Shown: piece after piece, positions 12,675-43,724 of the stretch
Position numbering within the stretch: the stretch's first letter is position 1
Layout of the letters: every line of letters starts with the position of its first letter
IMG/VR virus record: IMGVR_UViG_3300045988_149288
Origin: a virus
Strand: one strand, 5' to 3'
Length of the DNA stretch: 64,000 nucleotides
Translations under genes and position numbers: made by a program
The notes under the pieces: generated by a model
What the model was told of the DNA's origin: nothing
Databases searched by the model: none
The model's input: the letters and a program-made list of their open reading frames with translations, nothing else

Positions 12675-13088
12675 TTATTTAAATGTTTCGTTAGAGTTCA
12701 ATGCTTTTAAAATATTTTCTTGCAATTCATGAGACTTATTGGCATGGTCTGTCAACTTCTTATCGAAAGCCCGGTCTTCTCGAATTTCTTTATTACGAGC
12801 AAGAGCCTGACTGATACGAATAGGAAGGAATACTGCCATAAAATAACCGAACGCCATCGCAATGTATGGAACGATGTCGGTCATAAAATACATTATTCCT
12901 TTCTTGAGTGTATCTCCAAACACGCCAAATGAGCCTAAAACTAAGGTATAAACCACGGCGCTAATAAGAGAACCGATAATGAGTTTCTTATTGGCCTTGA
13001 TTTTAGACCAAAATGTTTTCATTTTGGTCTGAAAACCCTTCATCTTAGTCTTGAAATTTGACTTATTTGTCTGCTTAGATGTCTTCAT
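12675..13088 (-). CDS. membrane protein (2-3 TM)
   Basis: hydrophobic segments LIIGSLISAVVYTLVLGSFGVF and PYIAMAFGYFMAVFLPI. Confidence 0.35.
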   Translation of the reverse strand: MKTSKQTNKSNFKTKMKGFQTKMKTFWSKIKANKKLIIGSLISAVVYTLVLGSFGVFGDTLKKGIMYFMTDIVPYIAMAFGYFMAVFLPIRISQALARNKEIREDRAFDKKLTDHANKSHELQENILKALNSNETFK

Positions 13089-13404
13089 TGTCTTCCAAGA
13101 TTACTTCCACTGCCGAATCAGGAATCTGGTAATACTTAGTCTTAACGTAAGCACCCTTATCATTCTTCGCAGCGATGTTAAGTTCGATTGCACGCAAGTC
13201 CGTAAAGATAATGCGGTCACCAACAGATACAACACACGGAATACGGGAATCCGTGACAGGATTGTACTTGCCTGGGCCAACGGCAACAACTTCACCATAA
13301 ACAAGCTTACCCGAGCTATCAAGTTCCGGAATATAGATACCGCCAGCGGTCTTAGTGTCACCGTTACGGCGCTTTACAAGCACATAGTTATCATTCATCT
13401 TCAT
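13075..13404 (-). CDS. groES: GroES-like co-chaperonin (copy 1)
   Basis: VLVKRR...TKTAGGIYIPE...GEVVAVGPGK...VGDRIIF matches GroES. Confidence 0.75.
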   Translation of the reverse strand: MKMNDNYVLVKRRNGDTKTAGGIYIPELDSSGKLVYGEVVAVGPGKYNPVTDSRIPCVVSVGDRIIFTDLRAIELNIAAKNDKGAYVKTKYYQIPDSAVEVILEDNEDI

Positions 13405-13418
13405 AGTTAAATTTCCTT

Positions 13419-13748
13419 TTACTTAATTTCTTCGTTATCGTCAAGAATGCAGGTACATTCGTTTTCTGGAACCTTAACAAGTTTGAGCTTAGATACGTTT
13501 CCGTTTTCGTCCTTGACAGAAACCGTAATTTCTGTAGCGACACCTGGATTATAAATCACACGGTCACCAACCTTGAGGTTGATGGGCGCAATCTTATTGG
13601 TGTAAGGATTGAATTTACCCGGACCAAGCTTTACGATGGTACCAAGGGCCATAGGAATCGTTCCAATTCGGGGAATAAATAAGCCTCCGACAGTCATTTT
13701 GTCGAAAGGTTCCTCTTTTACGAGTACGTTATTTTCTGTAGTTTTCAT
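13419..13748 (-). CDS. groES: GroES-like co-chaperonin (copy 2)
   Basis: VLVKEEP...MTVGGLFIP...GTIVKLGPGK...VGDRVIY; tandem paralog. Confidence 0.75.
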   Translation of the reverse strand: MKTTENNVLVKEEPFDKMTVGGLFIPRIGTIPMALGTIVKLGPGKFNPYTNKIAPINLKVGDRVIYNPGVATEITVSVKDENGNVSKLKLVKVPENECTCILDDNEEIK

Positions 13749-15512: not shown

Positions 15513-15557
15513 TTACCGTAATACATTGTACTACACAAGCATAATATAGTAAACAGA

Positions 15558-15586
15558 CGGGCGTTTGTAAACCCGTCTTGCTATAT
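15558..15586. terminator. bidirectional terminator
   Basis: agacgggcgtttgtaaacccgtct hairpin. Confidence 0.55.
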
Positions 15587-16119
15587 TATTTTAGTCTTTC
15601 GATTATCTTCTGAACAATTCCGTTATATCCATCCTCAGTTCCATCAGCGACTTCATAATGTAGGCCGTTTGAATCCAAAAAATCAAGCAATCGACCGTCA
15701 ATAGCCTTAGCTTCCTCTTCAGTTTGGTTTCGACCGTTAGGATTATATTTCTTGGCACGCTTTACAAAAATATTGAATGTATTTTTATATTTCTTCGCTT
15801 CATAAAGGCACACATCCTGATACGGTTTTTCATCAGTATACATTGCACCCATAGCAATCGGACTATCGGTAACAATCACATCGACTTTTCCGAGAAGTCT
15901 GGCAACTTTAAGGCATTGCTTACCCGTGACATACAGCTGACAGAACTTGAGCGGAAACTGATCATCCTGCCATACCCTATCCTTGGCATATTCTGAGACG
16001 TATTCGCAATCAACTCCAGCCATTTTAAGTTTTGCAAAAATATAAGCGGCTCCGGTTGATTTTCCCGAGCCTGGACCTGCATAAAGATTAACTAATAATG
16101 TGTCTTTCATAATTTTCAC
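15586..16119 (-). CDS. P-loop nucleotide/nucleoside kinase-like protein
   Basis: Walker A YAGPGSGKST. Confidence 0.5.
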   Translation of the reverse strand: MKIMKDTLLVNLYAGPGSGKSTGAAYIFAKLKMAGVDCEYVSEYAKDRVWQDDQFPLKFCQLYVTGKQCLKVARLLGKVDVIVTDSPIAMGAMYTDEKPYQDVCLYEAKKYKNTFNIFVKRAKKYNPNGRNQTEEEAKAIDGRLLDFLDSNGLHYEVADGTEDGYNGIVQKIIERLK

Positions 16120-16122
16120 CTG

Positions 16123-16213
16123 TGATACAAATATAGTAAAGTTTTTATTACATTTCGTAACGTTTATAAAAATCTGTATTTACAAAAACGCTTCGGTTTG
16201 CTATATTTATTAA
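16123..16213. promoter_or_regulatory. divergent promoter region carrying the CTATATTTG motif in both orientations
   Basis: minus: TTTACTATATTTGTATC before 16119; plus: GGTTTGCTATATTTATTAATATG before 16215. Confidence 0.5.
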
Positions 16214-16214
16214 T

Positions 16215-17402
16215 ATGAAAATTGATTTATCGACTATCAAAAATGACCTTCTCACTTCTGGTATGAAACTTGCTTCCGCTATCGAAAGCAAGGGTTATGA
16301 AGCATACCTGGTTGGCGGTTGCGTTCGTGATATGGTTCGCTGGTCTCTCGGCCAGAGCGGTTTTCCTGATATTCATGATATTGACATCAGTACGAACATG
16401 CCTATCGAAGAACTTCAGAAAACCTTCAAGACCGCATCCAACAACGGTGAGGCTCACGGCACTATTCTGGTTTTCCAGGACGGTGAACCTTTCGAGGTGA
16501 CTCAGTTCAGAACCGACGGTGCATATACTGATGGTCGTCACCCCGATTCAATCACTTTCGCCAAGACTTTCAAGGAAGACTGCTTACGTCGCGATTTTAC
16601 CATCAACGCTATGGGACTTAGCGGCAAGGGTGAAGTGATTGACTATTACGGTGGTATCGCTGATGTCGAAAACGGTATTATTCGAGCTGTCGGCAAGGCA
16701 GAAGATCGTTTTGCTGAAGACTACCTTCGAATTTTCCGTGGTGTTCGCTTCATGGTCAACTTCGATTATTCTTTGGCTGATAGCACTTACGAAGCGATGA
16801 AGACTACTGCTTCTACTTATACCTATAAGCTGGATTCTCTGTCTTATCCTCGTATTCGTGGTGAAATTAGCAAGGTCAAGAACCCTTCTAAGAATCTTGC
16901 GAAGTTCTTCTTTACCTTGAACCATACTGGTGTTCTTAACTGGCTTACTACTTTCAGAAATGTCGATGTTCCTGCAATGATTAAGCGTTTGGAATCTGTA
17001 AAGCATCTCAACGAAGATAACATTTTCGCTGTAATCGCTTTCGGTGAAGAACCTGAAATGCTTGAACGCCTTTCTGCTACTCGCGAAGATTCTCGTCTTC
17101 TCAAGTGGTATAATTACATGCTCAAGAAGCTGAAGGAAACAAACGAGAACATTAGCTGGGATAGTATTGTTAAGTTCGTTGAGGGTGATTACAAGACACT
17201 CCTCGAAATGACCAAGATTATTCCTGCATGGTATCATCGAATTCCTATCGCTCTGAAGCTGAAAGACGATAAGCCTGATTTACATGCCATCGTCGAAAGA
17301 GTTCAGAACGAATTAGGTATCAAGCCAAGTGCTAAGTTCGGTCTTGCGGTTGACGCACTTCTCGAACAAGAATACGAAGCGAAAGCAACGAAAATCCAAT
17401 AA
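16215..17402 (+). CDS. cca: CCA-adding tRNA nucleotidyltransferase / poly(A) polymerase family
   Basis: Head-domain motif YLVGGCVRDMV...DIDI and class-II NTase body; plus-strand gene in a minus-strand block. Confidence 0.8.
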   Translation: MKIDLSTIKNDLLTSGMKLASAIESKGYEAYLVGGCVRDMVRWSLGQSGFPDIHDIDISTNMPIEELQKTFKTASNNGEAHGTILVFQDGEPFEVTQFRTDGAYTDGRHPDSITFAKTFKEDCLRRDFTINAMGLSGKGEVIDYYGGIADVENGIIRAVGKAEDRFAEDYLRIFRGVRFMVNFDYSLADSTYEAMKTTASTYTYKLDSLSYPRIRGEISKVKNPSKNLAKFFFTLNHTGVLNWLTTFRNVDVPAMIKRLESVKHLNEDNIFAVIAFGEEPEMLERLSATREDSRLLKWYNYMLKKLKETNENISWDSIVKFVEGDYKTLLEMTKIIPAWYHRIPIALKLKDDKPDLHAIVERVQNELGIKPSAKFGLAVDALLEQEYEAKATKIQ

Positions 17403-17404
17403 AA

Positions 17405-17436
17405 AACAAACCCGGTTTTTAACCGGGTTTTCATTT
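17405..17436. terminator. bidirectional rho-independent terminator
   Basis: aaaaaacaaacccggtttttaaccgggttttcatttt. Confidence 0.7.
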
Positions 17437-17681
17437 TATGCGATTGTTTCCCAACTGATTGTAATCATCTTTGAATCTTCATCTATTCGCATGAACTTAA
17501 ACTCAAATTCATTGAATTCGATGTCTTTTCGATTCAATGCTGGTAGTTTCACTTGGCTTTCGAGAATCGGCAAGCACTTTTCGCGGAATCGAGTGATTTG
17601 GCGAGAAGCTCCTGGAGTTCCTTCAGCTTCGTCAACAATAGTACATTTCTTTGTTTTCTTATCAACTCTTACAATAACCAT
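17436..17681 (-). CDS. hypothetical protein
   Basis: 81-aa ORF. Confidence 0.3.
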   Translation of the reverse strand: MVIVRVDKKTKKCTIVDEAEGTPGASRQITRFREKCLPILESQVKLPALNRKDIEFNEFEFKFMRIDEDSKMITISWETIA

Positions 17682-18121
17682 CAGATTCTCCGTTTAATTT
17701 TGATTTCATTTTCCTGGTCCACAAAATGTTCCTTCATGTATGCGACCTTATCAGCCGGTACATTGTGAACATTCTGGAATTCATTATCCATACGGTAAAT
17801 CGTAACTTTAATGTCACGAGCTTCCGCTTCTCTCAAATACGGTTTCAAATCCTTACGGGTTACGAACGTATTTGCGACGATAACATACTGTGCACCTTCA
17901 TCAAAAGCCCTAAATACTCTTTCAAAACAGTTTTTATGGGCATAATAAAGTTTACTAGTATGGAAAACGTATTCGCCCTTATCGTTATACCAATAATCAT
18001 CTGCCTCTACGTGCTCGACTTTGAAGCCTTGCTTTTCGAGGTCAGCTTTCAGCGTTTTGGCATAAGTAGACTTTCCGGAACCAGGTATTCCACGAACAAC
18101 AATCAATGTCTGTGTATTCAT
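17681..18121 (-). CDS. pnk: polynucleotide-kinase-like P-loop kinase (Pnk kinase domain only)
   Basis: Walker A VVRGIPGSGKSTYA; resembles T4 Pnk kinase domain in size and motifs; lies next to RNA ligase. Confidence 0.6.
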   Translation of the reverse strand: MNTQTLIVVRGIPGSGKSTYAKTLKADLEKQGFKVEHVEADDYWYNDKGEYVFHTSKLYYAHKNCFERVFRAFDEGAQYVIVANTFVTRKDLKPYLREAEARDIKVTIYRMDNEFQNVHNVPADKVAYMKEHFVDQENEIKIKRRI

Positions 18122-18339
18122 TTGATTTCCCTTGAGGAAACCAAATAAAAATCTGGTTTCCTATTCTGTTAACCTATATGCCGCAGCAACCAACAGAACA
18201 TTCAGTAAATAGAATTTAAAGAATATTCCGAAGACTGACCTACAGCCTAATTCCTCTCGACTTGTTCCTATTGAAGATATGATTAGAAACACAAATTCCA
18301 ATACGAACAATAACGTTCCATATTCAAATATAGTAAAAA

Positions 18340-19572
18340 TCATTCTTCAATAGTCCTTTGCACGTTAGAAGGTTCCAATTTTTTGTGTACAGCACGCTTT
18401 ACAGAAACAAAGCTCTTGTCATTGCGAGAAATACACTTGATAGCCTGCATAATAGCCCCTACATCGCTTTTATAGTGTGCTGTGGCATATTCATAGCGAG
18501 AACGCTGGTCTTCAACAGCCTTCATGGTTTCACGAGCTTCAGAGACGACTACTTCAGTTAATTCTGCTACCCTTTTACGTACGCTTTCGGCGTATTCACG
18601 TAATTCCGGGAATTCTTCAGGAATATACAAAACTTCGTCGTCAATCGGCTTGTAACCCTTTGTCTTGTCGACATTGGCATGGAAGAAATCCTTTTCACAG
18701 TCGTAAGCTACCCAGATATTCCATTCACTAAGGCATTCGAGCATTTTCGCAAGCTGGCACCATTCATCAGACTTTACCTTAATCTTGAAACCGTGTTCCG
18801 GGAAAGTGATAACGTAACCTTCCTGGTTTGACGGAAGCTTGGTTGCGATATTTCGAGCTTCATTGAAAGTATCGAATTCGTAAATCTCCGCCATCTTGAT
18901 TCCCCAAGCATTAGCATAGACACGAAGTCCGGTAATGTGTTCTTCTTCGTCAGTTTCATTATCGATAACAGCGAGCAGCACAAGGCCTTCGAAGTCATAA
19001 CGGATCGGATGGAAATCCTCGTTATAAACGATTTCGAACAGGTAGGTCTTCTTCGGGTTCAAGAGTTCCTTTTTGATATGCTGGTCAAACCAACGCTGTC
19101 CCCAGATTGCCTGGTCAGAATCGAAAGAACCGCCGGTTTTCAACTGCCAATGTTTCAGATACGGATTCCAGAATACGATACCCAAAGACCCGTCAACCTT
19201 TTCCATAGTATGGAAACGAATAGACTTCAGAATCTTTCGGATGTCAATCTTCTTCTGGTACTTCATGACCTTCTTTGCGAGTTCCGTCAGTTCGCCAGTC
19301 TCGCTGTCAATCAGTTCACCGTAGTTGAAGAACTTATCGAACGGACGAGCTACGATTTCGCCGGTTTCAGAATCGAAAACGATACCACGGGAGGTGAGAG
19401 TAATCTCATCCCAATCCGAAGTATATACTGTTTCTCGAGTATACTTGAAACCAACGAGCTTACCGTACCAGTGAGCTGTGATTCGTCCTTTTTCTGCCGC
19501 CTTCAAATACTTACGAAGCTTGTGCTTCTTCTGTATTTTCCTTAGCAGGTTCTTCAACTTTTCCGTTATCAT
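18340..19572 (-). CDS. rnlA: RNA ligase 1 (T4 RnlA-like)
   Basis: Motif I EKVDGSLG (KxDG); N-terminal RGIVFDSETGEIVARPFDKFFNYGE aligns with T4 Rnl1 [28 protein letters not shown]. Confidence 0.8.
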   Translation of the reverse strand: MITEKLKNLLRKIQKKHKLRKYLKAAEKGRITAHWYGKLVGFKYTRETVYTSDWDEITLTSRGIVFDSETGEIVARPFDKFFNYGELIDSETGELTELAKKVMKYQKKIDIRKILKSIRFHTMEKVDGSLGIVFWNPYLKHWQLKTGGSFDSDQAIWGQRWFDQHIKKELLNPKKTYLFEIVYNEDFHPIRYDFEGLVLLAVIDNETDEEEHITGLRVYANAWGIKMAEIYEFDTFNEARNIATKLPSNQEGYVITFPEHGFKIKVKSDEWCQLAKMLECLSEWNIWVAYDCEKDFFHANVDKTKGYKPIDDEVLYIPEEFPELREYAESVRKRVAELTEVVVSEARETMKAVEDQRSRYEYATAHYKSDVGAIMQAIKCISRNDKSFVSVKRAVHKKLEPSNVQRTIEE

Positions 19573-19786
19573 CTTTTTCTACCTTTTTCTTTGCACCGAC
19601 CTTATGGGTCTTGTCAAGTTCCACATGTTCGATTTTACAACCAGCTTCATATCTTTCCTTAATGAAGCTTTCAAGTTCACCACGAACTTCAGTTTCCGTT
19701 TCACCGTAACGCTTGAAAATAAGCGGTCCAGGAAGTCCATCGATAAAAACAATACACTTATAACGTTCTTTCATTACTTTTCCCAC
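19511..19786 (-). CDS. hypothetical protein
   Basis: 91-aa ORF overlapping gene ends. Confidence 0.25.
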   Translation of the reverse strand: MGKVMKERYKCIVFIDGLPGPLIFKRYGETETEVRGELESFIKERYEAGCKIEHVELDKTHKVGAKKKVEKDDNGKVEEPAKENTEEAQAS

Positions 19787-20442
19787 ATGGCATCGATTTT
19801 GACCAGTTCATCAATGCTTACGGGACGATACCATGCTTCCCAGCTAACATTGTTTTCAATCAACCGCATATCGTCCTGGTCAATAACACTGGTTTTATTG
19901 AATTCGTGTGTATGACCATGCACGACATAATCGATTTGACGACCTTCGTTGAGGTACTGGTTCAGAGCCGTAGGATCTCCGGAAGTACCATCATGTTCGT
20001 TAAGTGTTTTATCGTAGTTAAAATGCTGGAACAGATAATTCTTACCGTTATATGTCAAGAAAATATTGTCCTTTACCATTGTGATGTTCGGGAACATAGT
20101 GTCCTTAACCGGATAGAGCTTCTTAAACAACTGATAGTCATGATTTCCACGAATCATGTACATGTGCTTGAAATTCAACTTATTCGTGTAATAGTCACCG
20201 AAAACTTCGAGCAACTTGCTACCAGGAGTACCAAGAGTAAAGTCACCGAGAAAGATAACGGTATCATTCGGTGAAACGGTCGCATTCCACTGCTTAACGA
20301 TGTCTTCGTTCATTTCGTCGACTGTCACATACTTACGGGTACGGTCGAAATGATCTTCATAACTGGTACAAAGCTTTCGATGGTTAACGTGCAAGTCGCT
20401 GACGACAAAAATCTTTTCTGTATTAGGTAATTGTAAATCCAT
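19774..20442 (-). CDS. calcineurin-like metallophosphoesterase
   Basis: Motifs VVSDLHVNH, GDFTLG, RGNHD, GHTHE; start placed at MDLQLP preceded by TTATATTTGCAAT motif. Confidence 0.7.
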   Translation of the reverse strand: MDLQLPNTEKIFVVSDLHVNHRKLCTSYEDHFDRTRKYVTVDEMNEDIVKQWNATVSPNDTVIFLGDFTLGTPGSKLLEVFGDYYTNKLNFKHMYMIRGNHDYQLFKKLYPVKDTMFPNITMVKDNIFLTYNGKNYLFQHFNYDKTLNEHDGTSGDPTALNQYLNEGRQIDYVVHGHTHEFNKTSVIDQDDMRLIENNVSWEAWYRPVSIDELVKIDAMWEK

Positions 20443-20461
20443 ATTGCAAATATAATAAAAA

Positions 20462-20490
20462 TAAGGCATTTTGTAAATGCCTTATTTTTT
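20462..20490. terminator. bidirectional terminator
   Basis: aaggcattttgtaaatgcctt + T-run. Confidence 0.55.
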
Positions 20491-20655
20491 ACTCCTGAAC
20501 TTCGGCCAGTTATAACAAATTAGTATCAGAAACAGTGTTTCAAGAATTACGTAAACCATTGAAAACTGTAATTGTAACAACTTACAGAAAATGAACATTG
20601 TTACAAGTACCGATAAAAATGTGTTAATAACGAATAATGCGAATTTTTCCATGCT

Positions 20656-21771
20656 TTATTTATTAAGGTAATCTTCAATAATCTGCTCGTGATGGAAACC
20701 CATCTTCGGGAGGTCATTAACATCGAACCATGCAGCATCCTTGGCGTCGTCACCGGCCTTTGCGAGCTTCTTTTCCTTGCCAGATACCTTCACAGACACT
20801 GCTGTATCGATAATACGCAAGCGTGGGTCAAACATGTGGCTGTAGGTCTTAATCTGCTCAAACTTTTCAACCGGAAGGTCCAGGGACGTTTCTTCGCGGA
20901 ATTCACGCTGTGCTGCATGTTCCAAAGAAGCATCTGCTTTTTCCGGAAGTCCGGTTTCCTTATTAGTATAGTCGGTCGGATTAAAAAAACCACCGGGTGT
21001 GCAGAAGTAGTTCATGTAAGGCGGTTTCTTACGGCGAATCAACAGAACTTGGTCACTAGAAATACCGACAATATCGACGGTATTGGCGAACTTGCCCCAG
21101 CCCTGCTTCTTGTAGTTTTCAAGCCACTGCTTTTCGAGTTCTTCGTAATTGGACGGGTTCTGGTCATAAAGGCTGTTAGTCTTGATAGGCATATCACGGT
21201 CATCAGTCAGTTCGCCTTCTTTACGGATATATTCGAAAACCGGCTTGCTGATATACTGCTTCACATCCTTGTAATGACATTCAGGATTTCTGTAGAAAAT
21301 ATCACGAGCTTCGCTACTGGAAATATCGCCCTTGAGACCGAGATCGAGCAAAGAACAACCTTCACGCTTTTCGATACCAGTCGGAAGACCAGGATAACGA
21401 ACACAGACAATAAACTTGTAATTCTTCAAGAGACGGTCGCTAAACTTCCACTTCTTATCGAGCAATGCCTGCCATTCGTCTTCACCGATAACGATAGTAA
21501 TATCTGTATCTTCGGTTCCGAACTTGGAAGTAATGAATTCATAAGTTCTGTTATTCTGGATAAGAATAGTCGGATTCAACTTACGTGCCTTCATCGCAAC
21601 TTCAACCATAGCGGCACGTTCATTCACTGGCGTCTTGTAATTCTTTTCATCTGTATTGGAAACGATGACATAAAGTTCATCGCCTTTACGAACCTTCTTG
21701 CTCACAGCCTTGATAATAGCTTCATGAGCGTGTGTAATCGGATCAAATGCACCACCAATCAAATACTTCAT
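20656..21771 (-). CDS. bifunctional NMN adenylyltransferase / Nudix hydrolase (NadM-Nudix, NatV-like)
   Basis: N-terminal GGAFDPITHAHEA (HxGH nucleotidyltransferase); C-terminal Nudix box AAQREFREETSL. Confidence 0.8.
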   Translation of the reverse strand: MKYLIGGAFDPITHAHEAIIKAVSKKVRKGDELYVIVSNTDEKNYKTPVNERAAMVEVAMKARKLNPTILIQNNRTYEFITSKFGTEDTDITIVIGEDEWQALLDKKWKFSDRLLKNYKFIVCVRYPGLPTGIEKREGCSLLDLGLKGDISSSEARDIFYRNPECHYKDVKQYISKPVFEYIRKEGELTDDRDMPIKTNSLYDQNPSNYEELEKQWLENYKKQGWGKFANTVDIVGISSDQVLLIRRKKPPYMNYFCTPGGFFNPTDYTNKETGLPEKADASLEHAAQREFREETSLDLPVEKFEQIKTYSHMFDPRLRIIDTAVSVKVSGKEKKLAKAGDDAKDAAWFDVNDLPKMGFHHEQIIEDYLNK

Positions 21772-22141: not shown

Positions 22142-22180
22142 AGCTGTTCCTTATGTTTTTACGAAATATAGTAAAAAGAA

Positions 22181-22200
22181 AGGGCTTTGTAAGCCCTTAA
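22181..22200. terminator. terminator
   Basis: aagggctttgtaagccctt. Confidence 0.5.
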
Positions 22201-23776: not shown

Positions 23777-23837
23777 AGTAGTTCCTTTTGTTTATGTGTA
23801 TAATATAGTAAATTCGCCTATAAATGTCAACCCAAAA

Positions 23838-23899: not shown

Positions 23900-25816
23900 T
23901 TACTTATCTGCTTCGGAGAACAGATTAATAAGCGTGTCCTTGCTCAACTGAGTCAAGTCAAGAGCAACTTCAGTCTCAGTATCGGAATCATCGACAAATG
24001 TAAAACCTGCTCTTTCGAGAATCGGCTTCAGGTCGACGAACGAACGACACTTGTTCTTGAGGTTCTCAATATACACGTCTGCATATTCTTGACTCGGGAC
24101 ACGTCCTCCTCCCTGGGTAAGGTCCATGAGATAGACTTTGTTGTCCACGATCAATGCACACTGCTTGTCGCGTTCGTTATCCACCGGAACGATGAATTCA
24201 GCGACAACATTGTTCGGGTCAACCTTTGCACTTACCCTGTATGCGTCATTCTTCTTTTTCTTTTGACGAGCGACGAAGAACTTAAACTGGGACTTTGCGG
24301 AACCATTGTACTGACTTACGGAAATCTTTCCATCCGGGCACTTGCAGTCGATGTAGAACAATTCTGTTGCTTCAGGGTCTGCATTAGTCATGTCGCCAGA
24401 GAAAATAATCTTATTTTCACGGTCAGTGAATGATGCGTTCCAGCCATAGCTACTACCGTTAATATCAGCCATATGAAGGTCGAAGTCACGAGTACCCCAT
24501 TCGTTACGCCAATAGATACCGACGATATTGTGATCGTCAGCCATATTGACAGAGGTACCGAACGGATAGTTACCGATGAAGTTTTTTTCTGACGTTGGGA
24601 CGGTCAGATTGATATTCAACGGATAACGAACAGTACATGCCTTACCCTTGATGGAATTGACAATGGAATCTTCGAGCATTCCATAGAGTACCATCAGGTA
24701 AGAATTCATGGACTGGCTTGTAGCCGGAGTGTCCTTGCGGATCCACATCTTGCCGTTACGAATTACGTACATCTTGCCGCGAGCGTTCTGGAGCTTAGCA
24801 AGAATACCTTGCATGAGAGTAATCTTCTTGAAGTTGGTGATTTCACCCTTTTCAAGACGAGCACGTACATCGTCCAGCTTCTTCTGTTCAGAAAGTACGG
24901 TTTCCCAGAAACCGGCAGTGAACGGCTTATGGTCAGTAACAGCCAAACGACGGATATGGTTAATAACCGATGAATTCGACTTCTTGCCAACAACAGCGGC
25001 CTTAAGCTTTGCTGCAGCCTTTCTGAAAGCTTCATTCTTGAAAACAGACGACTTACCAGCATCCTTCTGATTCTTGAATGCCAAGAACAGAGGCTTGAAG
25101 CGGTAGAAAATTGAAGCGAGTGCATGACACTGCTCTTCCGACAGTTTAGTGAAGTCGACGCTTTCAGCCTTTTCCTTAATCATGCGGATAGTCTTCTTGT
25201 CCTTGATGAGCATAGCTGCACCAGTAGCCTTGAAGACAAAATATCGAAGCATGTTAAACGGATCCTTACCGTAGAAACCAGTTGCATCCATCAGGGCGAT
25301 GGTTGCTTCCTTATTCTTAATGGTATCAATATCGAGACCATAGGTCTTGAAGCGCTTCTGTTCGGTAATGAAGCCAACAAGTGCGTTAACGGTTTCAGTT
25401 TCAAGAGCGATACCAGCCTGGAGCATCTTAACACAACGGTTATAGATTTCTTCGTCAGTTGCCGGCATAATCACCTTGAAAGAGTCATATGGGATTTCAA
25501 CGTCCGGAGCGTTGTTCGGAACGTATGTTTCACCCGTATAATCGGTTCCGTAGGTCGAGGCGTAATGAAGAAGTTGATCTACCAACAATTCAAAACGCGT
25601 CTTAGACGTGATGTCGGACCATTTGGCGTAGAAAGTCTTATTGTAATTTGTCTTCGCTTCAGCCTTGACCCAATCGAGTGCGAGCTTGGAACAACAATCC
25701 GGGTGGATAATCCAACCGTACTTTGCGGATTCAGCGTTGACATCTTCAAAAGAACGCTTTGAGTTACCTTCTGCCTTAGGCATGACATTGAACATTGTAA
25801 TCAACTTAAGATTCAT
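23900..25816 (-). CDS. large hypothetical protein (638 aa)
   Basis: long ORF with 100-nt leader containing GAGGAA SD; no recognisable motif. Confidence 0.4.
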   Translation of the reverse strand: MNLKLITMFNVMPKAEGNSKRSFEDVNAESAKYGWIIHPDCCSKLALDWVKAEAKTNYNKTFYAKWSDITSKTRFELLVDQLLHYASTYGTDYTGETYVPNNAPDVEIPYDSFKVIMPATDEEIYNRCVKMLQAGIALETETVNALVGFITEQKRFKTYGLDIDTIKNKEATIALMDATGFYGKDPFNMLRYFVFKATGAAMLIKDKKTIRMIKEKAESVDFTKLSEEQCHALASIFYRFKPLFLAFKNQKDAGKSSVFKNEAFRKAAAKLKAAVVGKKSNSSVINHIRRLAVTDHKPFTAGFWETVLSEQKKLDDVRARLEKGEITNFKKITLMQGILAKLQNARGKMYVIRNGKMWIRKDTPATSQSMNSYLMVLYGMLEDSIVNSIKGKACTVRYPLNINLTVPTSEKNFIGNYPFGTSVNMADDHNIVGIYWRNEWGTRDFDLHMADINGSSYGWNASFTDRENKIIFSGDMTNADPEATELFYIDCKCPDGKISVSQYNGSAKSQFKFFVARQKKKKNDAYRVSAKVDPNNVVAEFIVPVDNERDKQCALIVDNKVYLMDLTQGGGRVPSQEYADVYIENLKNKCRSFVDLKPILERAGFTFVDDSDTETEVALDLTQLSKDTLINLFSEADK

Positions 25817-25924
25817 AACATTTCCTCATTAAAAGTGTTAAAGCGAGAAGTAGTATTTATTTGCCTAAATTATAATGATATAGGAACATCTTTTGCTTTA
25901 ACGGGTTAAAATATAGTAATTATT

Positions 25925-25952
25925 GAGGGTTTTGTAAACCCCTATTTTTTAG
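25925..25952. terminator. terminator
   Basis: gagggttttgtaaacccctatttttt. Confidence 0.5.
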
Positions 25953-26133
25953 TTTTTTCCTTGGTTACTTTCTTCTTCAAGGAGTTTTCTGTTTCCAACG
26001 TACTTCCCATAAAAACTTACCGCTCGGATCGTGTTAGAATAGTTTAGGGATTGAGTTCTGTTTGACGATAAACAACCCGAACGGTCTGTATAATATAGCA
26101 AGTGCTTTGTCTGTTGTAAACCCTATATATGAA

Positions 26134-26177: not shown

Positions 26178-27053
26178 TTATCTATTTTTTATAAAATCCA
26201 AAACATCTTTTTTGACTGTTTCATAGTAGTCTTCCCAAATATTGATGACCGTTGTAAGATTCGAACTGCTTACGTCGTCCATCTTCAGCTTCTTTTTGTA
26301 TTTAGGGCAAGCGTTAAATACATATTTGTCGCCAAGTATCGCCTTCGCTTCGTAAATCGGAGATTTACTGGCTCGCGCGGCCCAATCCGAAATGATGTAT
26401 TCAGCCCAACCGACCAAGGACTTGTTTCCGGAATCAGTATTCGGTGTATCGAGACCGGTTCCGAAATTCAAAATCTTGATGTCCTTGTGGTTCTGCTTGA
26501 ACTGACCTGCTAAAAGAACGTCTGTACAGTTATTGGCCCACATGCCACCGTCGCAGAACGAATTTCCCTTATCATCAACAATAACGTCGAAATAGGTCGG
26601 AGCACTGCAACTTGTCAAAATGGCGAACCATTTATTTGTATCAGTATCGCCGAGGTCCCATACCTTTTCTACGGATTCTCCGTTCATGTATGTAACCGGG
26701 ATAAATGTCGGTTTCTTCCAGTCTGAAACCTTACCATTGAAATTCTTTTTCAAGAGAGCTTTCAAATTGGAATTATCATAGGTCGGACAGGACGGTTTCA
26801 AACGCTTATACCAGGAATACTTAGTAAAAATCTTGCTAAGGTTTGCCTTGTAGAGTTCGAAAAGGTCATGTGCCGAATATCCTTCAGAAAGACCGCCAGC
26901 AATGATAGAACCGGTACTTGTTCCAGCAAAAGCCGTTGACAAATCACCGAGTTTCTTACCGAGGTCCTGTTCAAGACGACACATAAAAGCTAATGGGCCG
27001 ATTCCGAGAGCACCACCGCCTTCAACTGAAATACATAATTGTTTCTTTGCCAT
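26178..27053 (-). CDS. patatin-like phospholipase
   Basis: Oxyanion GGGALG, nucleophile elbow GTSTGS (GxSxG), catalytic DGG in FCDGGMW. Confidence 0.8.
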   Translation of the reverse strand: MAKKQLCISVEGGGALGIGPLAFMCRLEQDLGKKLGDLSTAFAGTSTGSIIAGGLSEGYSAHDLFELYKANLSKIFTKYSWYKRLKPSCPTYDNSNLKALLKKNFNGKVSDWKKPTFIPVTYMNGESVEKVWDLGDTDTNKWFAILTSCSAPTYFDVIVDDKGNSFCDGGMWANNCTDVLLAGQFKQNHKDIKILNFGTGLDTPNTDSGNKSLVGWAEYIISDWAARASKSPIYEAKAILGDKYVFNACPKYKKKLKMDDVSSSNLTTVINIWEDYYETVKKDVLDFIKNR

Positions 27054-28064: not shown

Positions 28065-28934
28065 TTAATTATCTTTATTTTCAACATATTCCCATTTTAA
28101 TTTTTCATTAGTTATAGGATCTCTACCTGCAGTTTTTCTTGTTCCATGTAAAACTTCTATAATTTTTGATGCTTTTTTAGCCCATTTTTTTGCATCAATA
28201 ATTGTTTTAAAAATCATACCATTATTTACGCACCGTATAGGTTTATATCTTGTTTCCCATGGATTCCAACCAGTTTCACGTTTTTCTTTATATTTTTCTC
28301 TTGCTAAAATACTATGTTCTTCAAGTTTATTTGGATTTGACCACGTAATTTTATTTGAATTCCTAATTTTTTCACGCCATTCCAGATTATCTTTATTTTT
28401 ATCTATATTATTTCGTAATGTATTACAAATAGTTTCATAATATTCAGAATTAGTCTTATATGTATTTTTCATACCTATTGATTTTCTATTTTTTATTTCT
28501 GGATTATTTGCTATTTGTTTTAACTTATTTTTTATTTTTTCTTTTTCTTCTTCTGTTCTATTTTTCCACATGTTATATGAAATTTCAGATTGCTGTTTTC
28601 GACGTTTATCATCAAAAACAGTACAATGATATTCATTTCTTATAATTTCATAAGTTCTTGATGAAATTTTTGATGTATATGTATTATTTAATGACAAAAA
28701 TATCCACATTGCACATGCGGTTTTTTGACATGGCCAAATTTTATAGCAAAGTATATGTGCAATAAAATGTTCTCGTGGTGTTAATAAAATAAAATTATGC
28801 TTATTTGAAATATATTGTGGAAAAATACATTTTGGAAATATATGATGTTTTTCATAATATATACCATTATGCTTACATCTATTTTCTAATTTTGCCTTTT
28901 TAATCAAATTTATATAAATTTTTCTATAATTCAT
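28065..28934 (-). CDS. HNH-like homing endonuclease (AT-rich islet)
   Basis: YYEKHHIFPKC motif; strongly AT-rich relative to flanks; TATAAATATAAT directly upstream of ATG. Confidence 0.5.
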   Translation of the reverse strand: MNYRKIYINLIKKAKLENRCKHNGIYYEKHHIFPKCIFPQYISNKHNFILLTPREHFIAHILCYKIWPCQKTACAMWIFLSLNNTYTSKISSRTYEIIRNEYHCTVFDDKRRKQQSEISYNMWKNRTEEEKEKIKNKLKQIANNPEIKNRKSIGMKNTYKTNSEYYETICNTLRNNIDKNKDNLEWREKIRNSNKITWSNPNKLEEHSILAREKYKEKRETGWNPWETRYKPIRCVNNGMIFKTIIDAKKWAKKASKIIEVLHGTRKTAGRDPITNEKLKWEYVENKDN

Positions 28935-28970: not shown

Positions 28971-30083
28971 TTAAAAAACATAACCATCGCGACTTATACC
29001 TGTAGTTACATCACGTAAAATGCATGGAATTACTTCATTTGAACGTGTAATAATAACTTCATGGCCGATTTCAATACCCATATATTCAAGCATATCAATA
29101 TTACACATATTTGCACGTTGAATTGTTGCACCACATAATTCTACTTTTTCTACAATAGCAACCGGAGTCAAATTGCCATTCTTGATAGACCATTCAATGT
29201 TAAGGATCTTGGTCTGAGCAAGAGAATACTTCGGCTTCAAAGCGATAGAGAATTCCGGGAGGTAATTCGTTTCAAGATCTTCATAATCGATAACAGAAGT
29301 CTTCCAAACAAGACCGTCAATCTGATAATCGCGTTCTTCATGCCAAACCTGGTCCATAATGGCAACAGCCTTATCGCCAGTCATAGAGTCGAGGTCATAA
29401 ATTTTGTATTCGACGACATCGAAACCCTGCTTGGTCATCCAGTCGAGCATATCGACCTGAGTATGAAATTTAGTGTTCTTCGGGCGAGCTTCATAAACCT
29501 TGATATTGAGCTTGTCACAATCAGAACCATCGAGATGCTTCATAATACCAGAAGCGGCATTACGACAGTTCTTGTACTTCGGGAAGAACTGTTCCTTAAC
29601 GGACTTGTAGAGCAAAATTTCACCACGGATAGTTCCGGTAAATTCCTTATCCTTAAGCTTCTTGACAGCACCTTTCATTTTGAGGATATTATCGGTAATA
29701 TCATCACCGTATTCACCGTCACCGCGAGTAATGCCCTGAACGAGCTTACCGTCAACGTATTCAAGAGCAATAGAACAACCGTCAAGCTTCAAAGGAGCGA
29801 CGACAAATTCATGACCGGCCATACGACACTTATTGAACCAGACGTTCATTTCTGGAGCCGTATTGGCCTTATTCTGAGAGCCCATGATAATGTTGTGTTT
29901 TACTTTTTCAAATCCTTCGGTATGATCCTTACCGACTTCCTTCAAAACATCAGAATCAGGATAATTGGTTTTGAGTTCATCCCAGAGAGCATCGAATTCG
30001 ATGTCGCTCATAATCGGGGTGTCGGAGTTATAGTAGGCATCTTGTGCCTGGCGGATTTTAGCTTCAAGTTCGTTCTTATTCAT
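28971..30083 (-). CDS. NAD-dependent DNA ligase N-terminal module (Ia, adenylation, OB), stand-alone
   Basis: Ia-like YYNSDTPIMSDIEFDALWDEL, motif I APLKLDGCS (KxDG), TRGDG; start set at MNKNELEAK after TTTTTTACTATATTG. Confidence 0.8.
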   Translation of the reverse strand: MNKNELEAKIRQAQDAYYNSDTPIMSDIEFDALWDELKTNYPDSDVLKEVGKDHTEGFEKVKHNIIMGSQNKANTAPEMNVWFNKCRMAGHEFVVAPLKLDGCSIALEYVDGKLVQGITRGDGEYGDDITDNILKMKGAVKKLKDKEFTGTIRGEILLYKSVKEQFFPKYKNCRNAASGIMKHLDGSDCDKLNIKVYEARPKNTKFHTQVDMLDWMTKQGFDVVEYKIYDLDSMTGDKAVAIMDQVWHEERDYQIDGLVWKTSVIDYEDLETNYLPEFSIALKPKYSLAQTKILNIEWSIKNGNLTPVAIVEKVELCGATIQRANMCNIDMLEYMGIEIGHEVIITRSNEVIPCILRDVTTGISRDGYVF

Positions 30084-30115
30084 GTTATACAATATAGTAA
30101 AAAATATAGGCCTTG

Positions 30116-30382
30116 TCAACCCATTTTTTCTAAAGCATTGAGAATACAAAAATCATGCTTAAATGCAAGATTTTCTTTTTCAACGTCCATATCGTATTTC
30201 TTGTCACCCATTTGGATAATCTTATAAGAAGAATTTGCGATATGAGTATCGCTTTCTCGCGTCCACGAATACGTATAGCCACCAATCAGTTCTTGTTTAA
30301 GGGTTCTCCGTATAAGTCCATGAATATAACAATCACAGTCGTCTTTAACACCATCTTTGTCAATTATTGTTACTAGAATCAT
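30116..30382 (-). CDS. hypothetical protein
   Basis: 88-aa ORF. Confidence 0.3.
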   Translation of the reverse strand: MILVTIIDKDGVKDDCDCYIHGLIRRTLKQELIGGYTYSWTRESDTHIANSSYKIIQMGDKKYDMDVEKENLAFKHDFCILNALEKMG

Positions 30383-31151: not shown

Positions 31152-32801
31152 TTAGCGGCGGCGGCGACGCGTTGCTTCGGAAATGACGGACGGATCGTTC
31201 ATCAAATCAGCGAGGTTGCGACCGATAGAAGAAGTATTGAATGCGGCAGATTCCTTAGTCGGATCTTCCTTCGGCTGTGGAGTTTCCGGACGAGCTTCGT
31301 CCTTGGCTTCGTTTACGACTTCAGCTTCAGCCTTTTCGACCTTCGGAGCGCCGGAAACACCAGCGAGTCGGGCACCGAACATAGAACCGAGAACGGTCTT
31401 AAGGTCCATACCGAGAGAATCGGTCAAACCGCTAGAAATCTGAGTAAGCGTCTTGGTAATATCGCCGGTAAGCTTTGCGGTACCACTTTCACCGTACATG
31501 TTGATGTTACCAATCTTTTCCATCGGCTTAGCAACTGCGGCAGCGACAGCCGGGAGCTGTTCGAAATACTTTTCGATGGTCTTGAGCTGCATTTCCTGAC
31601 GAGCTGCGTCACCATACTTCTTCATGGCTTCAGCCTTCTGGTCAAGAGCTGCTGCTTCTGCAAGACCCTTAGCCTTTACAGCATCAGCCTCAGCTTCACC
31701 TTTAGCCTTAGTAGCTGCGGCTTCAGCGAAAGCCTTTTCCTTATCAGCTTCAGCCTTGGCGATAATTGCCTTAGCTTGCTGCTGCTGGGTAAAGAGTGCT
31801 GCTTCAGCTTCCTTCTGCTGCTTATAAAGTTCAGCATCAGAACGCTGCATCTGAGCCTGCTTATCGGCTTCAGCCTTCTTCTGAATTTCAGCTTCGAGTT
31901 CCTTCTGACGGACAGCTACCATACGTTCGCGAATTTCAATCTGTTTTTCCTGCTTTGCAACTTCTGCAGCTGCTGCGGTAATATTGATGGTCTTCTGCTG
32001 TTCCTGCTTCTGAATTTCATAAGCGGCATCAGCTTCGGCCTTCTTAGTATCAGAAATTCGCTTAAGGTCAGCCTTCTTAACTTCGAGGTCGTTCTGCTTC
32101 TGAGCGATTTCAAGGTTTGCTGCAACCTGAGCGTCGTTTGCGGTCTTTGCTGCTTCAGCTTGAGCAATCTTCACGTCACGTTCTGCATTTGCTCGAGAAA
32201 TTGATGCAGCCTTCTGAATAGCCACTGCCTTATCGACACCGAGGTTTTCAATAACCTTACCGTCATCGGAGAAGTTCTGAATATTGAAGGTCTTAACGAT
32301 AATACCGAGTTTTTCAAGGTCTGGAATAGCATTTTCGAGAACCTTTTCAGAAACCTGCTTTCGATCCGTAACCATGTCGACCAGATTCATCTGACCAACA
32401 ATCTCACGCATATTACCCTCAAGCACGTCAACAATCATCGCCTTAATCTGTTCAATCGGTTTATTGAGGAAGTTCTGTGCAGCTTTCTTAATTGCTTCAG
32501 GTTCATCAGAAATCTTCGCATTAACAACAGCGTCAACTGTTACATTAATGTAGTCCTTGGTCGGAACTGCCTGCTTAGTCTTGACGTCAATCGGAATCAA
32601 CTTCAAGCTAAGAACGTCAGCACGTTCAAGGAACGGGATCTTGAAACCAGCATGTCCGATAATTGTTCGAAGCTGTCGGAAACCCGAAATAATAATTACT
32701 TCATCCGGCGCCGCCTTAATGTAAGACGTAATGAAGAGGATAACGAGGAAAAGTACGAGCAGGCCGATACCCGCACCGATGAGGATATTTGAACTAATCA
32801 T
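31152..32801 (-). CDS. flotillin (SPFH/band-7 domain + EA-rich flotillin repeats)
   Basis: N-terminal TM, SPFH-like region, long EAxxK/AEAA coiled-coil repeats typical of FloT/YqiK. Confidence 0.75.
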   Translation of the reverse strand: MISSNILIGAGIGLLVLFLVILFITSYIKAAPDEVIIISGFRQLRTIIGHAGFKIPFLERADVLSLKLIPIDVKTKQAVPTKDYINVTVDAVVNAKISDEPEAIKKAAQNFLNKPIEQIKAMIVDVLEGNMREIVGQMNLVDMVTDRKQVSEKVLENAIPDLEKLGIIVKTFNIQNFSDDGKVIENLGVDKAVAIQKAASISRANAERDVKIAQAEAAKTANDAQVAANLEIAQKQNDLEVKKADLKRISDTKKAEADAAYEIQKQEQQKTINITAAAAEVAKQEKQIEIRERMVAVRQKELEAEIQKKAEADKQAQMQRSDAELYKQQKEAEAALFTQQQQAKAIIAKAEADKEKAFAEAAATKAKGEAEADAVKAKGLAEAAALDQKAEAMKKYGDAARQEMQLKTIEKYFEQLPAVAAAVAKPMEKIGNINMYGESGTAKLTGDITKTLTQISSGLTDSLGMDLKTVLGSMFGARLAGVSGAPKVEKAEAEVVNEAKDEARPETPQPKEDPTKESAAFNTSSIGRNLADLMNDPSVISEATRRRRR

Positions 32802-43214: not shown

Positions 43215-43724
43215 AATTTATCCTTAATGCTTAAATATAGCAAATCCATTACGATTCAATTACAACATATATATAAAATTTCCATGATTTTTTAAAATGA
43301 CAGAATATTTTATTTTTAGTTAAAAAATTTTTTGCAAAAACTTTCTATACTTGGGTTTACATATTCAAGTCTGATTCCTCGGAACGAAGACCAATCCAAT
43401 GGAATTGTCGGTAGAGGGTCAGCCATTGAAAACTTCAGATACGGGTTTTCCAGAAATGAGCTGGAATATCGTTTTGAAACATACTCGGTAACAGCTAGTG
43501 GAAGTATCAGCGAAGTGCAGATTAGCAATCTGCACGTTTAGCCGCCATGGTTTTAACGGATATAGCCGAAGTACAGGATGACCGCCTCGTAAGCCGTTAT
43601 GTAAATCCCGAAAGATTGACGATGAAGCTTTATACCAAAAGTGGAATAGTCATAGTCTGGAAGTTCCTTCTAGGCTTATGATCTCTGAATCGCATTACCC
43701 AAAAGATAGAACAAATAAAAATAA

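Follow-up and report, generated by a model that had tools for sequence, protein, structure and literature searches.

When genes for RNA end repair, tRNA maintenance and NAD+ synthesis lie side by side in a phage genome, we can ask: Which of them work together, and which are neighbours only? We analyzed this question for positions 15586-21771 of a stretch of phage DNA of 64,000 nucleotides, called the window below. A preliminary description had named five enzymes here, and the ORF list and HMM searches uphold the family of each at the coordinates given below. A metallophosphoesterase (MPE), an Rnl1-family RNA ligase and a polynucleotide kinase (Pnk)-type kinase, together with three small conserved ORFs that lie between or behind their genes, are read from their sequences as a heal-and-seal RNA repair operon, with a probability of about 65%. 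The phage is a giant one of the rumen type.

Gene order and probable operon limits

The genes for MPE (19774-20442), Rnl1 (18340-19572) and kinase (17681-18121) all lie on the minus strand, bounded by a promoter-like site and a hairpin terminator. The promoter-like site (20449-20477, minus strand) has the form TTTACA-N17-TATATT, a motif found 17 times in the window versus 1.2 expected. A terminator-like hairpin (20457-20489) holds the -35 element in its loop, and 6 nt separate the site from the MPE ATG downstream at 20442. Such a short distance cannot accommodate a leader: either MPE is translated from a leaderless mRNA or the site is not its promoter, and this counts against the heal-and-seal reading. 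At the other end, a GC-rich, bidirectional hairpin terminator (17408-17430) is common to the operon and to the plus-strand CCA gene.

The small ORFs are also on the minus strand. A conserved 91-aa ORF between MPE and ligase (19511-19786) overlaps the ligase start by 62 nt; it has 70% identity in two relatives (L002/L003) and a 56% identical homologue elsewhere in L015. A hydrophobic 60-aa ORF (18161-18343) and an 81-aa ORF at the operon end (17436-17681) are conserved in relatives as well, and in L007/L008 the kinase is followed, about 0.4 kb on and after one intervening ORF, by a homologue of the latter.

The first ORF of the interval (15586-16119, minus strand) was left undescribed in the preliminary description. 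It encodes a 177-aa AAA_28 P-loop protein (AAA_28 2.6e-7, phrog_2107) with 1100 homologues, some with DUF1653 fused, and is very widespread in large phages. Its family profile gave weak RecA-core matches only against the PDB, and its membership in the RNA repair module is not shown.

Predicted sealing and healing enzymes

The ligase (410 aa), the putative sealing enzyme, is ATP-dependent and T4 RnlA-like (RNA_lig_T4_1 4.8e-19; phrog_562 5.7e-46, full length). Its nucleotidyl-transferase motifs are complete, with the invariant residues K125-x-D127-G128, E180, E251-G252, K265, K267, R62, K80 and F82.

The second component is a binuclear MPE of the aq_1665 clade (Metallophos 1e-14) with all metal-binding motifs present, and we predict a 2',3'-cyclic phosphodiesterase or 3'-phosphatase that heals RNA 3' ends. 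A longer start at 20469 is available; most homologues, however, start at the second Met, which backs the shorter choice (20442) made originally. An Mre11/SbcD-like exonuclease was considered and rejected, and a Rad50/SbcC partner was not seen nearby, so that the earlier view of this enzyme stands on that point.

The third component is a stand-alone protein of 146 aa, predicted to be a polynucleotide 5'-OH kinase for 5'-end healing (AAA_33 2.9e-8; KTI12; phrog_505, polynucleotide kinase, 3.6e-9). In comparison of its family profile with the PDB, the leading solved relatives were nucleic-acid kinases: PSTK (1.4e-12), T4 Pnk (9.5e-8, full length), Pnkp1 (7e-7), mammalian PNKP (3e-6) and the kinase of Clostridium thermocellum Pnkp (CthPnkp, 2.3e-5), the exception being a fungal P-loop kinase (9drz) whose PDB name gives no substrate. 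T4 Pnk (1ly1) was also the best Foldseek match. The protein is of the Pnk type and not a dNMP kinase; dNK and dTMP-kinase matches are limited to the P-loop and under their cutoffs.

The P-loop and the equivalents of T4 Pnk D35 and of the SDTN and AVP motifs are kept. The R38 equivalent is W44, aromatic throughout the family, and that of the lid residue R126 is Q116 in the subgroup of this kinase. Both arginines are reportedly essential in T4 Pnk by mutagenesis from the Shuman laboratory, and the heal-and-seal reading is weakened because their equivalents are not conserved.

Fusions and gene contexts in relatives

In related phages MPE and kinase form a single fused protein of 357-365 aa. Six homologues (P0052, P0053, P0054, P0057, P0060 and P0062) have an N-terminal MPE that is 52-61% identical to that of the window, and in the three whose C-terminal kinase halves were tested (P0052, P0057, P0060) these share 44-50% identity with the window kinase. 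More distant fusions occur in both domain orders, MPE-kinase in P0192 and P0216 and kinase-MPE in P0281; in P0208 the kinase has an NT5C-type HAD phosphatase as its fusion partner.

These families also recur beside Rnl1. In L020, the gene immediately after a distant MPE-kinase fusion encodes an Rnl1-like ligase (hhalign 98.2%, E 3e-14), MPE and Rnl1 in L018 are one base apart from stop to start, and L011 (kinase homologue P0030) has a row of kinase, stand-alone HAD_PNKP phosphatase and Rnl1. In known phages the partner of Rnl1 is a kinase-HD protein (Bacillus phages) or a kinase-HAD protein (Streptomyces phage BillNye). Gene presence, family membership, intact catalytic motifs, fusions and recurrent adjacency are all seen directly.

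Since the genes flanking the ligase are fused in relatives, and their families recur beside Rnl1 in unrelated contigs, the co-location of MPE, Rnl1 and kinase goes beyond chance. The fusions, the adjacency of a fusion to Rnl1 and the kinase/HAD_PNKP/Rnl1 row speak for an end-healing enzyme of the Pnkp kind that is split and works with Rnl1. Judged by fusions in both orders and Rnl1 links in several independent contexts, MPE and kinase are functionally coupled, and the "modular Pnkp + Rnl1" proposed at the outset is the best reading.

Could these be unrelated auxiliary genes that happen to share a variable part of a very large genome, the kinase being a nucleotide kinase and MPE a nucleotide or cyclic-nucleotide phosphodiesterase? 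Several kinase homologues do adjoin dCMP deaminase, Thy1, Acb5-family or unrelated genes, which weakens the heal-and-seal reading, and gene order within the clade is fluid. This is nevertheless very unlikely in view of the repeated fusions in both orders, the recurrence of Rnl1 adjacency in four different arrangements and the P-loop-only kinase matches mentioned above; moreover, joining a nucleotide kinase and a nucleotidase in one protein would create a futile cycle.

T4 Pnkp can heal DNA ends in vitro. A second alternative is that MPE and kinase heal nicked or broken phage DNA, as 3'-phosphatase and 5'-kinase, for a DNA ligase. An NAD-dependent DNA ligase is encoded at 28971-30149, the DNA repair enzyme PNKP of mammals is among the kinase matches, and MPE weakly matches the NCBIfam model of PdeM, a ligase-associated DNA-damage phosphoesterase (7.6e-5). 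We consider this role quite unlikely: the PdeM match is far under its cutoff (22 vs 150 bits), the DNA ligase gene is 8 kb off, past several promoter-like sites, and the recurrent neighbour is an RNA ligase of the Rnl1 type, not a DNA ligase.

NMNAT-Nudix and NAD+

In transcriptional order, the gene just before the repair operon encodes a NadM/NatV-type bifunctional NMN adenylyltransferase-Nudix hydrolase (20656-21771, minus strand; CTP_transf_like 6.8e-11, NUDIX 1.1e-12). NCBIfam NMNAT and bifunctional NMNAT/Nudix models match it, the best PDB match is the bifunctional NMNAT/Nudix 2qjo (3.8e-9), and the motifs GAFDPITHAH, ISSSEAR and REFREE are present. Alignments with relatives begin at residue 18, in agreement with the shorter start chosen earlier.

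This gene adjoins the MPE-kinase fusion in L015, L016 and L017 and in L007/L008 is separated from the kinase by about 0.7 kb. No Rnl1 was found within 5-9 kb of the MPE or kinase genes in L007, L015 and L017, where NMNAT-Nudix is present, and this weakens the heal-and-seal reading. Thus a third alternative arises, in which MPE and kinase act with NMNAT-Nudix in NAD+/ADP-ribose metabolism and Rnl1 is an insertion into the NAD module; their substrate might be, for example, nicotinamide riboside or an ADPR derivative, which they would phosphorylate and whose cyclic or terminal phosphate they would hydrolyse. NMNAT-Nudix adjoins MPE in the window too, and phage NAD+ reconstitution pathways are diverse, with discovery ongoing (PMC13464706; bioRxiv 10.1101/2024.02.11.579819). 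However, all NMNAT-adjacent loci belong to one phage clade with a conserved 640-aa neighbour (60-75% identity), and common ancestry may account for the shared gene order, whereas L011, L018 and L020 have these families beside Rnl1 without NMNAT. Matches of the kinase profile are to kinases of polynucleotides and tRNA; NadR-type (AAA_28) and NRK-type kinases are not among them, and the known NadM phages described in PMC9503650 use NadV, not a kinase. We therefore regard a role in NAD+ metabolism as unlikely.

Does NMNAT-Nudix itself serve NAD+ homeostasis, as had been suggested? The NadM/NatV type fits NAD+ salvage, but the obligatory partner Nampt is absent from the window: neither Nampt nor NadV was found in the 64 kb, with all six ORFs of at least 400 aa besides the ligase scanned. 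The NAD-dependent DNA ligase, about 7 kb away, gives the phage an everyday use for NAD+.

The CCA-adding gene

The plus-strand gene at 16215-17402 encodes a class II tRNA nucleotidyltransferase of the CCA-adding type (395 aa; PolyA_pol head domain 1.4e-30). Its best NCBIfam match is CCA tRNA nucleotidyltransferase (2.4e-66, 224 bits vs a 290-bit cutoff), and its motifs are GGCVRD (34-39), DID (55-57), RRD (125-127) and EDYLR (168-172). The gene has a promoter-like site of its own (16179-16207) and makes up an independent transcription unit (16179-17402), convergent on the repair operon. It lies near the repair module only in the closest relatives, of about 85% identity or more; none was found near the module in L007, L015, L017 and L018. 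The ordinary reading is tRNA 3'-end maturation and upkeep, and the proposed defence against 3'-end tRNA nucleases is speculation.

Comparison with known systems

Like T4 Pnkp with Rnl1, the operon combines 5'-kinase, 3'-phosphoesterase and an Rnl1-family ligase with all its motifs, and its kinase aligns with T4 Pnk over the full length. The T4 phosphoesterase, however, is a DxDxT HAD domain, whereas that of the window is a binuclear MPE; it and the kinase have a gene each, one on either side of the ligase gene, and the R38 and R126 equivalents are not kept. CthPnkp (kinase-MPE-ligase) likewise heals ends by pairing a Pnk-type kinase, detectably related to that of the window, with a metallophosphoesterase-superfamily enzyme. 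The window MPE, however, falls in the aq_1665 clade, which is uncharacterised, and the ORFs of the region showed no Hen1; the likeness to bacterial Pnkp/Hen1 drawn earlier is thus an analogy only. In Bacillus phages, an AAA_33 kinase-HD phosphohydrolase fusion is the gene next to Rnl1 (Skywalker) or one homing-endonuclease gene away (FADO). Common to both is a Pnk kinase whose phosphoesterase module can be exchanged, but the HD fold is fused there and the MPE fold is split here. KVP40 NatV and NARP2 (Nampt plus NMNAT-Nudix) share the NMNAT and Nudix architecture and motifs of the window protein, and differ in having Nampt.

Jumbo-phage RNA repair has been described as ATP-dependent ligase (Rnl1/Rnl2), PNK and phosphatase, with phosphatases "in a small number ... 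calcineurin-like and HD-like" (Iyer et al. 2021, PMC7824862), and jumbo phages also carry CCA-adding enzymes and, for NAD+ salvage, NadM-Nudix with NadV (Iyer et al. 2021, 2022: PMC7824862, PMC9503650). The aq_1665 assignment of MPE, the relation of fused to split forms and the ligase between the halves appear to go beyond the RNA repair portions of these accounts.

Proposed mechanism and meaning

From these observations we infer the following substrates and order of reactions. A host anticodon nuclease or other metal-independent RNase would cut tRNA or another RNA; MPE would open and remove the cyclic or 3'-phosphate to leave a 3'-OH, the Pnk-type kinase would phosphorylate the 5'-OH, and Rnl1 would seal the nick with ATP. 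MPE and kinase would be the halves of a Pnkp-like bifunctional end-healing enzyme, one polypeptide in related phages and probably split in the window with the ligase gene between. The CCA enzyme and the NadM-type NMNAT-Nudix are taken as auxiliary neighbours, the former to maintain tRNA 3' ends and the latter to make NAD+, and do not demonstrably belong to the repair machine. A single counter-defence island uniting all these genes, as first proposed, is plausible only, and its concept has already been published for jumbo phages, as described in PMC7824862. If it has the counter-defence role suggested here, the RNA repair operon would be a variation on a known phage counter-defence theme and not a new type of system.

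Genes of the interval

All ORFs named in the preliminary description are present in 15586-21771, and HMM scans confirmed the family of each. The minus strand carries an NMNAT-Nudix gene (20656-21771, 371 aa), a calcineurin-like metallophosphoesterase gene (MPE; 19774-20442, 222 aa), an Rnl1-type RNA ligase gene (18340-19572, 410 aa) and an AAA_33 P-loop kinase gene (17681-18121, 146 aa). A class II tRNA nucleotidyltransferase (the CCA enzyme; 16215-17402, 395 aa) is encoded on the plus strand. The first ORF of the interval, a 177-aa AAA_28 P-loop protein (15586-16119, minus strand), was absent from that description. The catalytic motifs of the ligase, MPE, CCA enzyme and NMNAT-Nudix are intact.

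The gene order is MPE, a 91-aa ORF, Rnl1, a 60-aa ORF, kinase and an 81-aa ORF. A promoter-like site (20477-20449) precedes this block, and a bidirectional hairpin terminator (17408-17430) closes it. The CCA gene, the only one on the plus strand, has its own promoter-like site (16179-16207) and meets the block convergently at their common terminator. The conserved 91-aa ORF and the ligase gene, at its start as annotated, share 62 nt (19511-19572), and no alternative ATG lies near the ligase N-terminus.

The promoter-like motif TT(T/G)ACA-N17-TATATT, often ending in TTTnCTATATT, occurs 17 times in the window against 1.2 expected by chance. Examples besides the plus-strand site of the CCA gene lie on the minus strand at 15543-15571, 20449-20477, 22165-22193, 23802-23830, 25910-25938 and 26092-26120. 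At several sites a terminator-like hairpin holds the -35 element in its loop, so that terminator and promoter make up one cassette. The -10 element of the MPE and CCA genes is only 6-7 nt from the ATG, so both mRNAs would be leaderless if these promoters are real.

Fusion of MPE with the kinase and association with the ligase

Searching for homologues of the MPE yielded six proteins of 357-365 aa in which an N-terminal MPE (52-61% identical to that of the window) is followed by a C-terminal AAA_33 kinase. In the fusions tested, the kinase half shares 44-50% identity with the window kinase. One fusion served as query in an exhaustive search of 1.84 billion representative proteins. More distant two-domain fusions exist in both orders, MPE-kinase (P0192, P0216) and kinase-MPE (P0281), and protein P0208 carries the kinase and an NT5C-type HAD phosphatase in one chain. 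The pairing of a Pnk-like kinase with a phosphoesterase module that can be exchanged is the hallmark of end-healing enzymes. Judged from sequence, MPE and kinase are one predicted functional unit. In locus L019 a 360-aa ORF ahead of the reverse-order fusion was tested as a candidate ligase and is not detectably one.

The Rnl1-type ligase is tied to the MPE and kinase families in five arrangements: in the window, in three loci of other contigs (L018, L020 and L011) and in deposited phages. In L018 a single base separates the stop of the MPE gene (54% identical) from the start of Rnl1 (37% identical), and an Rnl2-like ligase lies ahead of the MPE. In L020 a distant MPE-kinase fusion directly precedes a short ligase of the Rnl1 family (hhalign probability 98.2%, E 3e-14). 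The row in L011 consists of a kinase homologue (39% identical), a stand-alone HAD_PNKP phosphatase and Rnl1, and amounts to the classical T4 Pnkp in split form. Among deposited Bacillus phages, Rnl1 occurs with a fusion of kinase and HD phosphohydrolase, adjoining it in Skywalker and separated from it by one homing-endonuclease gene in FADO. In Streptomyces phage BillNye, Rnl1 is 1.4 kb from a kinase-HAD Pnkp.

Skywalker gp121 (L005, 7092-8066) and FADO fado_200 (L006, 7819-8844) carry no annotation beyond 'AAA family ATPase' or 'hypothetical'. Both are AAA_33 kinase-HD phosphohydrolase fusions and thus probably HD-type Pnkp end-healing enzymes. Phage-encoded tmRNA genes were detected a few kb from RNA-repair genes at L011 14115-14503 and L018 5617-5968; the former also adjoins the gene of an RF-1-domain protein.

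What we observe directly is that the three window genes are present, which families and active-site motifs they have, and where these families are fused or adjacent; from this we infer substrates and biological role. We estimate a probability of about 0.65 that MPE, kinase and Rnl1 together form an RNA end-healing and sealing mechanism. The MPE would take off a cyclic or 3'-phosphate, the kinase would phosphorylate the 5' end, and Rnl1 would seal the break.

Bacterial Pnkp/Hen1 has kinase, MPE and ligase in one polypeptide, whereas the window has three separate genes and the fused relatives join MPE and kinase only. No methyltransferase-like ORF that could be a Hen1-type partner was found among the ORFs of the region scanned.

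Families of the three enzymes

The MPE matches the Metallophos HMM (1e-14) and has the motifs DxH, GD, GNH(D/E), H and GHxH as D16/H18, G66-D67, G99-N100-H101-D102, H140 and G176-H177-x-H179 (numbered from the Met at 20442), with motif residues invariant in 19 sequences. Specific full-length similarity in both sequence and structure places it in the clade of aq_1665 (PDB 1xm7). The comparison figure was 17.4 for aq_1665, 12.1 for LpxH, 10.4 for Lambda phosphatase, about 10 for SbcD and Mre11, and 8.3 for the CthPnkp phosphatase (4j6o, rank 41). When the crystal structure of aq_1665 was deposited, the function of the protein was unknown; the family has phage homologues in the thousands. The MPE does not belong to the lambda-phosphatase-like clade of the phosphatase module in bacterial Pnkp/Hen1. 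The likeness to Pnkp/Hen1 drawn in the preliminary description is an analogy of logic, not a family relationship.

That description had also named two identities that would count against its own reading, and neither was found. An Mre11/SbcD-like exonuclease was rejected because the combination of an Mre11-type capping domain with an adjacent Rad50/SbcC ATPase is lacking. Membership of the kinase in a dNMP or nucleoside kinase family was rejected as well, since matches to dNK and dTMP kinase covered only the N-terminal ~35-50 of 146 residues, from the P-loop onward, far under cutoffs, and none was full-length.

The kinase (phrog_2071, 2.6e-32; phrog_505 'polynucleotide kinase', 3.6e-9) has the P-loop GxxxxGK[ST] as G11-IPGSG-K17-S18. 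Its D41, in the motif EADDY, shows a conservation of 90% or higher; it aligns with RDDYR of T4 and is the equivalent of D35, the catalytic Asp of T4 Pnk. Two T4 arginines, R38, which contacts the phosphate of the 5' nucleotide, and R126, the lid residue, have no conserved equivalents in this subgroup. The first position is W44 in the window kinase and W, F or H family-wide. The second is Q116 in the window kinase and K, G or T in close relatives, with Arg only in P0036-38, P0041 and P0044, which are distant members. Compensation for this loss might come from R10, an invariant residue ahead of the P-loop.

When the single sequences of kinase, MPE and ligase were compared with the PDB, all matches were either non-significant or at the level of the P-loop, so that family profiles were needed. 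The kinase profile matched PSTK (1.4e-12), a fungal P-loop kinase (9drz, 3.3e-8; the PDB name gives no substrate), T4 Pnk over its full length (9.5e-8), Pnkp1 (7e-7), mammalian PNKP (3e-6) and the CthPnkp kinase (2e-5). Solved relatives of the family in this comparison are thus mainly nucleic-acid kinases. T4 Pnk (1ly1) was first in the Foldseek list for the AlphaFold model (pLDDT 89.8), and close behind it came the small-molecule kinases PFKFB, APS kinase and gluconate kinase, which share the fold. Several kinase homologues neighbour nucleotide-metabolism or unrelated genes. In L013 (8001-8754) a kinase homologue with 35% identity immediately precedes an Acb5-family protein (Pfam PF26761), with a patatin gene nearby; this region may be another counter-defence neighbourhood.

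The ligase passes the gathering score of Pfam RNA_lig_T4_1 (69.6 bits, cutoff 28.3; E 4.8e-19), and its residues 29-389 match phrog_562 (5.7e-46). It reaches 45.9 bits against the 242 of the NCBIfam equivalog TIGR02308 and is therefore a divergent Rnl1 member. The nucleotidyl-transferase motifs I, III, IV and V are present as K125-V-D127-G128, E180, E251-G252 and K265 with K267, invariant across 7 phage Rnl1 sequences. The best tblastn matches in phage records were only ~28% identical.

CCA enzyme and NAD+ genes

The CCA enzyme matches the head-domain HMM PolyA_pol (106.6 bits, 1.4e-30) and has class II motifs A-D: GGCVRD 34-39, DID 55-57, RRD 125-127 and EDYLR 168-172. Its best NCBIfam model is the CCA NTase PRK13299 (224 bits, 2.4e-66), under the 290-bit equivalog cutoff; PcnB gave 115 bits. 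CCA addition is a candidate specificity, with A addition, CC addition or a poly(A) polymerase activity as alternatives. More distant relatives lack the CCA gene near the module, and neither the window nor the relatives' loci examined contain tRNA genes. The proposal that this enzyme defends against 3'-end tRNA nucleases finds no support in the window.

The NMNAT-Nudix, matched by Pfam (CTP_transf_like 6.8e-11, NUDIX 1.1e-12) and NCBIfam models and by PDB 2qjo (3.8e-9), is of the NadM/NatV type, with motifs GAFDPITHAH 24-33, ISSSEAR 167-173 and REFREE 306-311 (388-aa numbering). In phages this type is described as always accompanied by NadV/Nampt, the two forming NARP2 (PMC9503650; bioRxiv 10.1101/2024.02.11.579819). 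Apart from the ligase, six window ORFs reach 400 aa or more, and no Nampt/NadV was found among them; the window is 64 kb of a likely ~400-kb genome. A short NAD-dependent DNA ligase (28971-30149, minus strand, 392 aa; Nlig-Ia, adenylation and OB domains only) consumes NAD+ directly and so gives the phage an ordinary NAD+ requirement. A homing endonuclease gene (phrog_655; 28065-28934, minus strand) adjoins it.

The NadM-type NMNAT-Nudix accompanies the MPE-kinase unit in four gene arrangements of the megaphage clade, and this bears on another explanation, that the unit serves NAD+ or ADP-ribose metabolism. In the clade with a conserved 640-aa neighbour, NMNAT-Nudix is a more consistent neighbour of MPE and kinase than Rnl1 is. 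For example, L015 and L017 have the order 640-aa gene, MPE-kinase, NMNAT-Nudix, and L007 has MPE, kinase and NMNAT-Nudix with intervening genes, with no ligase in range in any of them. This nearness, which may be inherited synteny, leaves the explanation a small probability. A functional tie of the aq_1665-type unit to NMNAT-Nudix beyond RNA end healing seems to us even a little less probable. Substrates on the NAD reading may be nicotinamide riboside or derivatives of ADP-ribose that are phosphorylated or cyclic; the source of these derivatives could be defences that consume NAD+ or RNA repair that depends on it.

Genome context

At the nucleotide level the 6.4-kb region matched none of 50,697 phage records, and there is thus no sequenced close relative among them. 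The window has matches among IMG/VR contigs; from the length of one, 411 kb, a genome of ~400 kb is likely. UvsX-like and family-B polymerase genes are present, and related contigs carry T4-type clamp-loader genes. A 'cow-rumen-2' sRNA of Rfam (43509-43613, plus strand; 107.5 bits, gathering score 66) points to a rumen or gut origin. The phage looks like a very large T4-related one of rumen- or gut-type habitat. The whole block is collinear in relatives of at least ~85% amino acid identity, which is uninformative beyond genus level.

The AAA_28 protein has 1100 homologues, many of them 50-90% identical, on very large phage contigs, and some are fused to DUF1653. It is labelled 'thymidylate kinase' in PHROGs, and a specific kinase match was not found; its profile gave only weak RecA-core matches in the PDB. 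A split NadR-type nicotinamide riboside kinase, which would make it a NARP3-like partner of NMNAT, was rejected in the absence of a NadR match.

A 638-aa protein (23900-25816, minus strand), 60-75% conserved in L007, L015, L017 and L018, always adjoins or neighbours MPE, kinase, Rnl1 and NMNAT genes there despite rearrangements; it has no match in Pfam, PHROGs or the PDB. Tandem 109-aa ORFs (13075-13404 and 13419-13748, minus strand), ~38% identical to each other and both conserved in relatives, look GroES-like by eye. Other minus-strand genes encode a patatin-like phospholipase (26178-27053), a 549-aa SPFH/flotillin protein (31152-32801) and an MFS transporter (49221-50366).

Implications

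The known picture of phage counter-defence is unchanged by this system. CCA-adding enzymes and NAD+ salvage are described as counter-defence in the accessible text of Iyer et al., where the aq_1665 assignment of the phosphoesterase, the fused-versus-split relation and the ligase gene between the halves do not appear.

If the end-healing reading is true, the aq_1665 metallophosphoesterase family would gain a function, RNA 3'-end healing with a Pnk-type kinase. Another module would join the HAD, HD, 2H and lambda-phosphatase-type MPE phosphoesterases that phages combine with Pnk kinases, and the same enzyme would exist fused or split, with the ligase gene between its halves. These proteins are also compact candidate reagents for RNA end repair. 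The tie of MPE-kinase to NMNAT-Nudix, if true, would mean a previously undescribed route of NAD+ reconstitution or detoxification coupled to RNA repair. For megaphages of the rumen and gut, investment in tRNA repair and NAD+ supply would imply that their hosts deploy defences that cleave tRNA and deplete NAD+.
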